Positions 30,050 through 63,551 of a DNA stretch of 64,000 bases are shown one piece after another; the first letter of the stretch is position 1; each line of letters opens with the position of its first letter. The stretch comes from Octopus vulgaris (taxonomy: Eukaryota), in the NCBI GenBank assembly GCA_951406725.2, contig OX597833.1, positions 31,062,001 to 31,126,000 on the forward strand, given 5' to 3'. The position numbers were made by a program, and so were the translations under genes. The notes under the pieces are model-generated. The model did no database searches. It saw only the letters and a list, made by a program, of their open reading frames with translations, and had not been told where the DNA came from.

Positions 30050-30375
30050 TGGATCAACACCACTAAAACCAATACCATGGCTACGATATGTTAATGACAC
30101 CAAGTGCTGTTAGATCATGTGAACTCAATAAAGCCATCCATACAGTTCACAATGAGTTTGAATTCCTGGACGTATTAATCAGTTTGAATTCCTGGACGTA
30201 TTAATAACACGGACCAAGTATGGATTCAGGATATCCGTATACTGCAAGCCGACATTTACTGGATGATACCTCAACTTCAATTCCCACCATCTATACAGTG
30301 TAAAGAGAGGGATTGCTCAGTGCCTAAAACATCGTGCAAAAAATATAAGTAGCGATCGTGATACACACCACGAAG
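30050..30375 (+). pseudogene. Penelope-like RT fragment
   Basis: Translations KPIPWLRYVNDT, FLDVLI, VYCKPTFTG*YLNFNSHH and VKRGIAQCLKHRA. Confidence 0.75.
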
Positions 30376-58392: not shown

Positions 58393-60719
58393 GGTGTGAG
58401 AGGATGGTTAAGAAATAGTTAATTTAGATACGATATAAAATAGAGAGTGAGGTGGAGGAAAGAAAAGAAAATAGATGTGAGATAAGTATGGATGTTGTAT
58501 TTGTAGATCCATTTTTTAGGCAGAATGGTATACATATAAGATTCAAATATCTTATGAGTAAAATCTAATAGTATTTAAAATTGGTCATTCCAAGTATAGA
58601 GTTTATATACAGTGTTATTGAATCAAGGGTTTTATATAAAGTGACCTAAAAATAGGGAGTGTATTAGTAGGGTCAAATCGAAAGAGAGGAATAAAGAAAG
58701 AGAAAAAGAGAGAGTAAGATGAAGAAAGTAAGAAGAAAACAATAAAATAATAAAATAATAAAAAAATAGGAAGATAGGAATAAAGGAAAGAAAAAAAAGA
58801 AAAAAGGAAAACAAAGATATAGATAAGGGAAATGCACCAGTTAGTGGTCAGTGGAGATAATTTGAAAGTAGGAGTGGGGTGATAGAGAGAGAAAGGTATT
58901 AGAGTGTAAAAAGATAGGAGGAATGGGGGAGGGGTAATAAAAGGTACAGGAGTGACAGATGTGTAGTGATAGAGTCTAAGTGATGGGGCAGAGAGAAGGT
59001 TAGTAGTAAAGAATAAAGAATTTAGGAATTTAGATGGTTTGGCAGGTCAGTGCTTAGTAATATAAGAAAATATATATGTGAAGATGTATACATATGTTAT
59101 TGGGATTACCTAAGGGATATAGAGGAAATGTATTGTATGGTCGTTTAGGCATTTGGATTTGTGGTAGAATATGAATGTGTGAAAAAAGCGGTGGTTGCAT
59201 GTGCTTAGTGCCTCATTATATTTATTTAGCAGTGCTGGAGAGAAGTGCTTTAATATGTGAAGTGCCTCCTTCAGGCAAGGTTTGCAGGTTGATCGTTGAC
59301 ATACACTTCCCTAACATCAAGGGAGGCCTATACAGGGACGACGCTTTATTTGTTACTAAAAGCATAAATAAATCACCCTTAGAAAGAACTAGAAAGGGTC
59401 TATATAAATTCTTCTCTAACCTAAACCTATCTATCACATTCGAAAACTCTCACAAAACTCTGACGCAACTTTAAACCTATCAACACCCCAATATTCCCCT
59501 TACCACAAACCTAACCAATACCTTAACATCCACTCTAATCACCACAAATCCACTTTTGATAACATAATCAATGGCATCTCAACCCGCATATCCGACCTCT
59601 CTTCCACTGAAGAAATTTTCAATAATCACGCACCATATAATCAAGTACTCGCCGCTAGCGGCTTTTCCCAACAAATAGAATACATCCATAATACCAGGCT
59701 CAAACAACACATATCTCAAATCACATCTCAAACATGCAACAACCATCACAATCGCAACCAACCACACACACATTCGTCGATGGAACCCTGGAAGGTCTTG
59801 CACCTAGGCAACCTAGACCACCCACACATTCATTTAACACTAGGTCAAAAACGAAAACAACTAAAATAGCTAACAATAACAGACCTCACCTTCCACATAC
59901 CTTCCCCCAAAATATAGATAGCACTCCTTTATCTAATAACTTAGATAGCACTACTCCCAGACCCCCTTAAAAAGTGGTGGACGTTCTATTCTGTGGTACC
60001 TCCCCCCCCCCCATTCTCACTTAACGTTAAGAACTTAGCTAAATCCTTCTTTAGAATACTAGACTCTAAATAAACATAATGAGGCACTAAGCACATGTAA
60101 CCACCGCTTTTTTCACACATTCAAATTCTACCACAAATCCAAATGCCTAAACGACCATACAGTACATTTCCACAATACCCATTAGGTAATCCCAATAACC
60201 TTATAAATCTACATTCTAACTCCTAATCCCTATCTAATTCCTCACTCATATTAGAATATCACAACCATCTAATTATATTCATATGTATGTGAATCCATTC
60301 ATATGTATGAATGTGTGTATGCGTATATGTATGTGTGTATGTGTGAATGTATGAATGCATGCTAGGTATATATACCTGCGTATACAGGGGCGATAATACA
60401 TACAGATGCACGTATATGTGGGTGCGCATGTGTGCATATACATACGAGTAAGAGTTGTATGTGTGGATATTGGATATGTATAAACAACTGTATGAATATA
60501 TATATACATGTCTAATATATACATATGTATACATCTTCACATATATATTTTCTTATATTACTAAGCACTGACCTGCCAAACCATCTAAATTCCTAAATTC
60601 TTTATTGTTTACTACCAACCCTCTCTCTGCCCCATCACTTAGACTCTATCATTACACATTTGTCGCTCCTTTTTTATATCTTATCTAAATTAACTATTTC
60701 TTAACCATCCTCTCACACC

Positions 60720-60900: not shown

Positions 60901-62427
60901 TTGATTTTCATGATGTCCATGTCCCGTCTTACAGCCTCTACAGTGTTCATAGAGAATTGAGCAGCATTCATGATGGCATTTTGATACTCAGCCCGAATCA
61001 TCATGATCAACTCTTTTTCAAAATTCAGTTGACTTCCAGCCCTTCATGTCAGCTAACTTTTACTCGTCTACAACTTTAATCTGTAAAGCATAAGCTCTCC
61101 GACGCTGTTGACTGTTGTTAATACATCAAGTTGTCCTTGATAAAAGGAGACACAAAAAGTCGTCAAATTTAACCCGGGCACCCTGTATATAAATGTTTCC
61201 CGGATTTATCGTTTTATCCATTACGTAATTCAAGCCAGTCACTAACAACGTGGCAAGGCCCTGTTTGTTTAAGTTCACGAGATCTCTTGGGGTTTGTGTA
61301 TATCTAATTCAATTGCTGTGTGTATGTGCTTGAACATATGTATGCATGTGGATAAATTTCGTTTTCTGTAGCAACGTGCACACAAACACACACACATTCA
61401 AAAATGCATGTACACATAGGTTTACATACATTATACCACAACACCTTGATACAATGAGCCGGATTCCTTGTTGACGGGGCTTAATAAAAAGGGGCTAAAT
61501 AATTAACACACTGTATGCAAATTAGTAACACTAGTTTCCTGAAGCTATTGGATATGATGTGTTTATTAACAGATTAGCAAATTCTTTTTATAGGACCCTC
61601 ACTGGGGCTTCATCAGCGGTGTCTACATCATCTAGCCATCACTTTTACTGAATCTGCAGAAAAATAGGTTAGCTTGATATTTTTGTTCTGCTATGTAGGT
61701 TTACACACACCACACGCATGTATATATATTTGTTGTGTTTTGGGAGAGTCATTACGCCAGTAATAATTACACAGGCACAGGTTCAAATCGCTATTGTAAG
61801 TCAATTTGCCAAGTATGTAACTAACAAATAGATTGTTTATTTAATGTGCTGGTTAAACAATCAAAGTTCTTTCATTGCTGTTGGCGACTTTCTCAGTGAC
61901 TTAGTGACTTTCGTTTTCGATCTGTGAACCTTTTTTAACTGGGGGAAAGCCTTATTAATTTTAAAGCTAGATTAAATTTAGAAAAAAAATTCAATTTCAA
62001 GTTTGCAGTGAAGTTTTTTTAGTCATCTATGAATGTTAAATTGAAAGCTAGTATAGTATATTTCTTATTATTTGATTATAAAGAATTAAAATTTGAAAAA
62101 TATAGGAATACTCACAAAATTATTATTTAAAGTATTTAAACGTTCGGGTTGTGCAATGTATACAAGATACCCAACTCCAGACGATTATTCAACAGATTTG
62201 TATAACTCTGATGTTTTAAAATTTCATAAGTTTCCATAGAACAAAGTTGACAACCATCCCTACTATTTCTATATGGTTGCACCCTTCTTACTATATCCCA
62301 TTTTAGGTTGAATTCTATATTACTTTGATATTTATCATTGTTTGATTTCACTTTTTCAATATCAGCGACAGTGGACGCTGGAAAAAGTATAAGTATTTGT
62401 GAAGGAAATCTAATTCTCGCCGACAAC

Positions 62428-62488
62428 TATGATTGTCACACGCTGACGAGAGGTCAATACCTCGAAACTCGAGTCCGTGTGTATCATA
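62428..62488 (+). ncRNA. Type I hammerhead ribozyme, copy 1 (predicted cleavage after GUC, C62475)
   Basis: Stem I cacacg/cgtgtg extended by tatgat/atcata. Core CUGACGA, stem II gagg-tcaata-cctc, GAAA, palindromic stem III actcgagt, GUC cleavage triplet. Confidence 0.9.
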
Positions 62489-62779
62489 AGTTGAAGACGG
62501 GAAGGATGACTTCCCTTTGCAAATACTGACAGGACACAGAAAGTGTGTCTATGGCCAGCTGGAGGAGTGTGTCCTCCTGGGGCTAAAAACTACAGTAGCA
62601 TCCACCCTTAGGGGTAGCCATATTGAGATGGCAAATATACGTCACGATGTGTTACCGCTACTGTATATAACTCACTTTGATATTTATCATTGTTTGATTT
62701 CACTTTTTCAATATCAGCGACAGTGGACGCTGGAAAAAGTATAAGTATTTGTGAAGGAAATCTAATTCTCGCCGACAAC

Positions 62780-62840
62780 TATGATTGTCACACGCTGACG
62801 AGAGGTCAATACCTCGAAACTCGAGTCCGTGTGTATCATA
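62780..62840 (+). ncRNA. Type I hammerhead ribozyme, copy 2 (predicted cleavage after C62827)
   Basis: Identical to copy 1, 352 bp downstream. Confidence 0.9.
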
Positions 62841-63551
62841 AGTTGAAGACGGGAAGGATGACTTCCCTTTGCAAATACTGACAGGACACAGAAAGTGTGT
62901 CTATGGCCAGCTGGAGGAGTGTGTCCTCCTGGGGCTAAAAACTACAGTAGCATCCACCCTTAGGGGTAGCCATATTGAGATGGCAAATATACGTCACGAT
63001 GTGTTACCGCTACTGTATATAACTCACTTTGATATTTATCATTCTATATTATTTGTTTTTAGTTCCCAAATTTTGCTAGATAGTGTTGTGCAACCTGCCT
63101 TATGTTTGAGCCTAAAAGAGGAAAAAATGACTGTTAAGACGTCTTTTAAGATCCACCGAACATTCGAAATAAAGAAAGCTATTGCTAGAAGTTATTATCG
63201 TGCATTTATAAATTACGTTTTGGACCGAACAACGACCAGATACCGGACATTTTGATCTAATCCTACAATTACAAATGGGGGGATAGTGTTCGGTTCTGGA
63301 ATTATTTAAGGACAGTTCACTTACATTACTGTTATTTAAATTATTATTAGTATTAGTATTACTTTCATTATTAGTAATCACGTTGTTATGCAAATTAGGG
63401 TCACTAGTTATTAATCTATCCTCACCATCATCACCTACCATACTTTTATCTATACTACCTATATTATTGGTATTGTTATTATCACTATTTACATCAAAGT
63501 TGTTATTATTATTATTATTATTGTTATCATTATTAATATTTTTATTATTAC

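Follow-up and report, generated by a model that had tools for sequence, protein, structure and literature searches.

A young hammerhead retrozyme family in Octopus vulgaris with Penelope-like insertion ends

The window analysed here (64,000 nt of Octopus vulgaris contig OX597833.1, positions 31,062,001 to 31,126,000) contains a short tandem element that is almost certainly a non-LTR retrozyme. The family to which it belongs is probably a young non-autonomous Penelope-like element (PLE) that was usually copied from a monomeric circle. It is a new representative of an already known element type, with unusually clear genomic evidence on mechanism, and its value rests on the family as a whole more than on the window copy. 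Circle-templated mobilisation of retrozymes by PLEs was proposed in PMC4209133 and PMC7761336, and the hypothesis that Penelope-like enzymes copy animal retrozymes from a circular RNA dates from 2014-2020 (PMC4209133, PMC7229834, PMC7761336); a 2026 preprint still described the mechanism as unresolved (bioRxiv 10.64898/2026.07.22.740005). The mapped insertions displayed two fixed 3' ends, paired in inverted copies, and variants shared by all copies of a single insertion.

The window copy and its hammerheads

The element formed an exact period-352 array of 722 nt (62322-63043, 2 x 352 + 18), of which 718 nt (2 x 352 + 14) lay between the target site duplication (TSD) copies (Table 1). The initial annotation had described two identical 352-bp units plus 14 bp, an 11-bp TSD and a 3-nt microhomology (ATT) at the 3' junction; all were recovered, together with an extra 1-nt microhomology (A) at the 5' junction. 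The TSD was independently supported by the host endonuclease frame, which encodes N-I-E from the TSD on both flanks. It was single in the original target, since one host frame ends with ...WELKTNNIE and the other begins with NIEFNLKW.... Every sequence feature of a non-LTR retrozyme that could be checked was present, as initially proposed: a 352-bp unit (range about 150-450), a GC content of 0.429, a hammerhead in each unit and the 11-bp TSD. The unit had no ATG-initiated ORF of at least 60 aa inside it, one ORF starting at 62980 and exiting into the flank. The layout was that of plain tandem units, not LTR-internal-LTR, and a tRNA search near the insertion gave no match. Duplication of a single unit during assembly, considered at the outset, was contradicted by multi-unit arrays with non-integer unit numbers at many other loci.

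Table 1. Features of the retrozyme insertion and of its host sequence in the window
Feature	Position	Strand	Remark
5' TSD copy, 11 bp ATTCTATATTA	62312..62322	+	Final base also matches the unit
3' TSD copy, 11 bp ATTCTATATTA	63041..63051	+	First three bases (ATT) common to the element end
Unit 1, 352 bp, 42.9% GC, non-coding	62322..62673	+	Begins where the 5' end was truncated at random
Unit 2, identical to unit 1	62674..63025	+	Period comparison
Start site A, unit positions 323-327	62644..62648	+	Read through in the window copy; again at 62996-63000
43-nt tail between sites A and B	63001..63043	+	Window 3' end is site B, unit position 18
Cleavage-to-cleavage monomer, predicted 352-nt circle	62476..62827	+	Putative RNA
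Type I hammerhead 1	62437..62481	+	RF00163, 32.2 bits, E 6.5e-6; predicted cleavage after C62475
Type I hammerhead 2	62789..62833	+	RF00163; predicted cleavage after C62827
Host remnant, upstream part of decayed Penelope-type GIY-YIG endonuclease (putative)	63052..63340	-	Motif pattern and tblastx; outside the retrozyme
Host remnant, downstream part of decayed endonuclease (putative)	62100..62311	-	Dispersed repeat

The intact type I hammerhead with a 6-bp stem I that had been recognised in each unit was confirmed by the Rfam model. Both copies scored 32.2 bits (E 6.5e-6), i.e. 1.8 bits under the RF00163 gathering score of 34; the scan of the window at the gathering threshold returned 0 matches, the hammerheads emerging by E-value only. 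Stem I (6 bp) is extendable, stem II counts 4 bp with loop UCAAUA, and stem III has 2 bp with the palindromic loop UCGA, the GUC cleavage triplets ending at 62475 and 62827. A minor remark concerns the initial view that metazoan retrozymes carry minimal hammerheads. Cervera & de la Pena 2020 assigned minimal hammerheads to PLEs and canonical type I hammerheads to retrozyme repeats (PMC7229834); the 2-bp stem III of the window hammerhead is also encountered in axolotl HHR_Amex2 from the same source. The predicted circular monomer displayed a minimum free energy (MFE) of -117.4 kcal/mol (z -6.2 against 100 dinucleotide shuffles) with stem I formed in the MFE structure; the minus strand also folded well (z -5.3), as expected of any hairpin-rich sequence. 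All 11 core bases were intact in 189 of the 193 family copies, about half of the loci having been picked by exact core match. Against 44 older loci, conservation of these 11 bases was not significant alone (269 of 314 positions agreed overall).

The sequence interrupted by the insertion contains a frame which we take to be a Penelope-type GIY-YIG endonuclease, from its motif pattern and from local tblastx matches to other loci; a Pfam scan of this frame gave no GIY-YIG match. As read from these motifs, the retrozyme landed in what appears to be an old PLE, in opposite orientation to the host frame. The downstream host repeat was matched at 91-100% by all 40 scored candidates. A 98% identical inverted copy of 62100-62322 occurred at C20:31127046-31127268, about 1 kb past the window end; it is probably the inverted arm of the host PLE itself and would likely serve as an empty-site control. 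Fragments of decayed PLE reverse transcriptases also occurred at 59175-59474 and 30180-30371 of the window (YRDD motif; tblastn match).

Family, insertion ends and Penelope-like elements of the genome

A search of the genome (2.8 Gb, 227 contigs) with the unit gave 3084 candidates, the best 40 of which were scored, and the 33-nt ribozyme core had 439 exact genome matches (control: 0). From the best 40 unit loci and further loci among the first 100 listed core matches, 91 distinct insertions were mapped, a sample biased toward long copies and intact cores. Two loci were excluded before counting, L056 (duplicate of L051) and L080 (satellite-embedded). The former pair (C1:21.14 Mb and 22.18 Mb) was apparently one insertion present twice in opposite orientation, as a segmental duplication or an assembly duplicate. 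In L080, two hammerheads 3.25 kb apart were considered as a lead to an autonomous partner and dismissed, these copies lying within the satellite with no PLE frame.

The family is young, since rare substitutions amounted to 0.5% per site. It belongs to a large superfamily of older relatives with the same ribozyme core (about 71-87% identity; L182-L226 and L023:3026-3203), in which one stem II pair displayed a compensatory A-U to G-C change and the first stem II pair was mostly a C-A mismatch (27 of about 40). These relatives often ended near sites A or B described below, a weak indication since the queries themselves ended there.

The initial annotation had a reverse transcriptase (RT) priming at an arbitrary point of the circle and called for a survey of insertion ends, whose outcome was divided. 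The 5' ends were spread round the whole unit in a near-uniform manner (KS p 0.08, n=130), somewhat enriched just upstream of A, as arbitrary priming would predict. Sense 3' ends, in contrast, clustered at two sites, A (unit positions 318-328) and B (16-23), which together accounted for 127 of the 136; 64 of them lay exactly at position 327. Arbitrary priming is therefore wrong, the 3' ends being fixed at two sites in the Penelope pattern, and we give it practically no credence. Fixed ends had also been named as an argument against the initial model altogether; they removed its arbitrary start and left the circle untouched. The window copy ended at B; its 5' end lay 153 nt, and its 3' end 136 nt, upstream of a cleavage site. 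The distance of about 150 nt first reported was thus accurate, and it arose from the fixed 3' site combined with a 5' truncation that fell there by chance.

Sites A and B are 43-47 nt apart, about 170 nt and 215 nt downstream of the cleavage site, respectively. Among the 46 single-orientation insertions, the 3' end was A in 33, B in 10 and other in 3. The remaining 45 of the 91 were inverted, head to head: 39 were A+B, none A+A and none B+B, one end being unclassified in the other 6 (A+B in 39/39 gives p 2e-12 versus 50/50). This strict pairing suggests that each PLE start site belongs to one target strand. In 85 of the 91 insertions, a (TA)5 stretch lay no more than 30 nt from an end, in a genome that is itself TA-rich. 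The window copy is among the 6 others, and its TSD is visible because it was not inserted beside (TA)n. Elsewhere, TSDs read by eye were about 13 bp at L049 and 12 bp at L095, those of the other loci being hidden in (TA)n.

Such features are known from PLEs. Craig et al. (PMC8557442) described inverted 5'-truncated copies, a 30-40-bp tail often present at one end only, and (TA)n targets. In vitro work on the anole PLE by Frangieh et al. (PMC11167929) showed two internal RT starts with the tail lying between them, preferential cutting at ATT, and cutting and extension of both strands of the target. The two fixed 3' ends of the octopus family very probably represent this Penelope tail signature, i.e. 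PLE-type two-site priming, and the initial suggestion of Penelope-type mobilisation was strengthened by the tail-bounding 3' ends, the A+B inverted copies and the (TA)n targets. The end map links the retrozyme to PLE-type priming without any sequence homology.

PLEs that are intact or young, target TA and share this two-end layout are present in the genome: each of three families ended in (TA)n and had two 3' ends separated by roughly 30-40 nt. The first (L146-L153, e.g. L148:2206-4551) is young and displayed an intact 781-aa frame with RT, CxxC and GIY-YIG parts (Pfam: RVT_1 just under cut-off, GIY-YIG over cut-off), (TA)n targets and a tail of about 38 nt; the CxxC before the endonuclease suggests a putative Neptune-type PLE. 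Its hammerhead-like motif is degenerate, U3/A8 replacing C3/G8, and some members have U instead of A at the cleavage position. The second family (L154:2582-4985, L162-L181) is extremely young, all 40 scored loci out of 1184 candidates being 100% identical over a 426-bp 3' region, with a minimal hammerhead (U4 to C) and a tail of about 33 nt. The third (L102:1-2030, L228-L257) is older (92-96% identity), with its own two 3' ends.

Homology between the unit and a PLE was found in none of 46 GIY-YIG loci, 30 third-family loci and the end-region alignments, 150 of 6136 GIY-YIG candidates having been scored. A homologous partner outside the loci searched is plausible, since PLE types that co-exist in a rotifer are reported not to cross-mobilise one another (PMC3846280). 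Three candidate links were rejected. The PLE upstream of L102 belongs to the older family, and the retrozyme was inserted into its 3' region, since other copies of that PLE family end differently. The relative next to the L154 PLE had inserted separately, and an AAATA..ACGT resemblance to one PLE end was equalled by 144-376 of 500 shuffles. An Rfam scan of 9 PLE loci returned microsatellite noise only.

The template of reverse transcription

Each insertion of a young multi-unit family records its own template. At six subfamily sites, mismatches amounted to 10/1119 within insertions (0.9%) and 3/471 between arms, versus 35770/99668 between insertions (36%). Moreover, 16 variants private to one of the 91 insertions occurred in all copies of their own insertion. 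They were carried by 14 of the 68 multi-covered insertions, and 9 of the 16 spanned 3-6 copies. Independent mutation would yield about 0.09 shared variants in a model without CpG correction. As a very generous CpG-corrected model, which overstates, expects about 12, weight was put on the 9 variants in 3-6 copies. In genome-wide exact searches, two of the four variants searched were confined to their locus: the L021 variant (6/6 matches, 4 + 2 over two arms) and the L028 variant (5/5). Those of L085 and L017 each had 4 matches at their own locus, with 2 and 1 single matches elsewhere, respectively; these three outside matches were located at C19:67866275, C19:10258167 and C23:36646031.

Uniform private variants would also be produced if about one unit inserted and the array was then lengthened in place through unequal crossover or slippage, as in the satellite-birth route put forward in bioRxiv 10.64898/2026.07.22.740005. 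Yet the same private variant is found in the two inverted arms, which end at separate start sites, and unit numbers are non-integer with random 5' ends. Of 285 private variants present in only some copies, 7 occurred in at least 2 copies, a star-like pattern rather than one of stepwise duplication. Local expansion or conversion is disfavoured, since later mutations were not homogenised. Local growth is largely refuted by the arm-shared and star-like variants, and we regard it as exceedingly improbable.

An inverted arm that is a self-primed fold-back copy of the first, as proposed for Penelope (PMC3846280), would likewise account for arm-shared variants, and short inner-junction microhomologies were indeed present in 31 of the 45 inverted insertions. 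However, either arm may be the longer and their lengths are uncorrelated (Spearman 0.06, n=39). In L021, furthermore, the B arm includes tail sequence beyond the outer end of A, in shared-template register, and, being the shorter of the two, could not have templated A. This pattern supports both arms having been copied from one RNA; fold-back copying is accordingly very unlikely in our judgement. L033 and L081, with different flanks and haplotypes, displayed a common inner junction (69/286, 4-nt microhomology) and near-equal arm lengths.

A register test was carried out on 36 A+B insertions, 3 of the 39 having failed filters. It revealed 59 sites with arms differing at the same template unit and 6 rare variants carried by every unit. 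Unit-specific variants that matched across arms numbered 2, the other 3 of the 5 register rows not being true register variants. These two were position 134 in L021 (G,G,C,G when read from the inner end) and position 262 in L033, both in register in both arms. The L021 and L033 templates therefore had non-identical units, i.e. were uncleaved multimers or multimeric circles: a monomeric circle could not have produced such variants, so that part of the templates was multimeric. In L022, L025, L033 and L042, the innermost units switched to another subfamily allele, which suggests template switches or mixed multimers.

These variants are also in favour of a template that was always an uncleaved linear multimer from a tandem parent, used by the same PLE machinery from the same start sites, hammerhead and circles being by-products. 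Cleavage is dispensable for the anole PLE in vitro, where RNA that was not processed served as the main substrate (PMC11167929). Around the cleavage site (150-160), 5' ends numbered 3/130 where 4.1 were expected, so RT did not run off a cleaved end, and none of about 197 passages across the site contained an indel; RT jumping between linear monomers is disfavoured by this missing 5' pile-up and by the indel-free crossings, both of which fit uncleaved RNA equally. Against a permanently linear multimer, each private haplotype would require a homogeneous parent, and none was found in the assembly for L021 or L028. Linear copying alone could not spread a new variant to all units, arrays would shorten at every generation, and subfamily alleles are uniform within insertions while differing between them. 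Homogeneous parent arrays missing from the assembly could also transmit private variants and would presumably need an earlier monomer step. We consider an exclusively linear template rather unlikely; a covalent circle was probably the usual template.

A look-up of public data listed no RNA sample with the unit; 20 of 24 listed sequencing runs (11 studies, 8 organism codes) contained at least half of the unit words, RNA status being guessed for 14. Contigs of four guessed-RNA runs covered the unit and one of 383 nt self-closed, such contigs being unable to separate circle from array or RNA from DNA. In runs X7 and X9 (RNA status guessed), depth was far higher over 62466-62620, with variants typical of older relatives.

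Proposed mechanism and comparison with known systems

Tandem copies would be transcribed, self-cleaved by their hammerheads and ligated into 352/353-nt circles. Judging from the genomic footprint, a presumed PLE RT-endonuclease would nick an AT-rich target, mostly (TA)n, on each strand, the nicks being offset by 11-13 bp where this could be measured, and cDNA would begin internally at either fixed site, A or B. Extension of both nicks, with an A start and a B start on the same template, would give two cDNAs joined head to head, usually via short microhomology; otherwise a single arm with random 5' truncation would result. Arms would exceed one unit since the usual template is a monomeric circle copied repeatedly, a minority of templates being multimers with non-identical units. 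The window copy would be B-primed and inserted in the old PLE. The initial claim that RT went just over twice round a 352-nt circle stands as regards reverse transcription beyond unit length (2.05 rounds); the circle is probable, with priming at B. We lean slightly towards a more specific version in which a PLE RT pair loads one closed 352-nt RNA, primes at A and B from both nicks and rolls several times. If true, the family would be a genomic record of circle-templated, twin-primed retrotransposition via a borrowed PLE without detectable shared sequence. As the start sites are defined, the template would measure 352 nt and the octopus genome also carries intact candidate PLE frames, the question of the circle is directly testable. 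Several observations weigh against the proposed mechanism: 1 of 9 Xenopus retrozyme dimers was cleaved in vitro (bioRxiv 10.64898/2026.07.22.740005), stem II of the older relatives mostly starts with a mismatched pair, the tail exceeds the published length, and the three PLE families examined have no sequence in common with the unit. The private-variant approach is applicable to any retrozyme family.

No report of similar retrozyme end or haplotype patterns was found in a literature search of mostly open-access main texts without supplements; the supplements of PMC7229834 or bioRxiv 10.64898/2026.07.22.740005 could list the present family or its ends. The family resembles the metazoan non-LTR retrozymes of PMC7229834 in its non-coding tandem unit of 150-450 bp with GC below 50% and one type I hammerhead each, its 2-bp stem III with a tetraloop, its TSD of more than 4 bp and a self-paired predicted circle leaving the ribozyme free to fold. 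Examples given there are mussel units of about 350-390 bp and axolotl Rtz_353 / HHR_Amex2. In those retrozymes circles and cleavage were demonstrated, whereas in the present family they are predicted. PLE mobilisation and circle-templated cDNA are hypotheses in that source, whose available text describes no fixed starts, tails or inverted insertions.

Comparison with endonuclease-bearing (EN+) PLEs, i.e. Poseidon PAc (PMC11167929), Neptune and Naiad (PMC8557442) and rotifer Penelope (PMC3846280), revealed shared features: copies are truncated at the 5' end and, when inverted, carry at one end a tail that is bounded by two 3' ends; targets are AT-rich or consist of (TA)n, with ATT at the junction; TSDs measure about 8-13 bp, and the hammerhead lies upstream of the starts. 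In contrast to these elements, the octopus family has no ORF, its arms run through up to 6 whole units, its hammerhead is not of the minimal PLE type and its tail (43-47 nt) is slightly longer than the published 30-40 bp (PMC8557442). MRC1 and other non-autonomous Chlamys elements are likewise PLE derivatives with multicopy head-to-tail insertions (PMC8557442). Yet they resemble autonomous families at their 3' end and most Chlamys lack hammerheads, according to the same source. The octopus family displayed no sequence link to an autonomous element in our searches.

Vertebrate non-LTR retrozymes (bioRxiv 10.64898/2026.07.22.740005) also occur as dispersed monomers, dimers and multimers alongside PLEs. 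The preprint argues for a PLE origin from co-occurrence and from pseudo-LTR (pLTR) homology, and it prefers local amplification. For the octopus family, such homology was not found in the PLE loci searched, while a PLE-like footprint and evidence against local amplification were.
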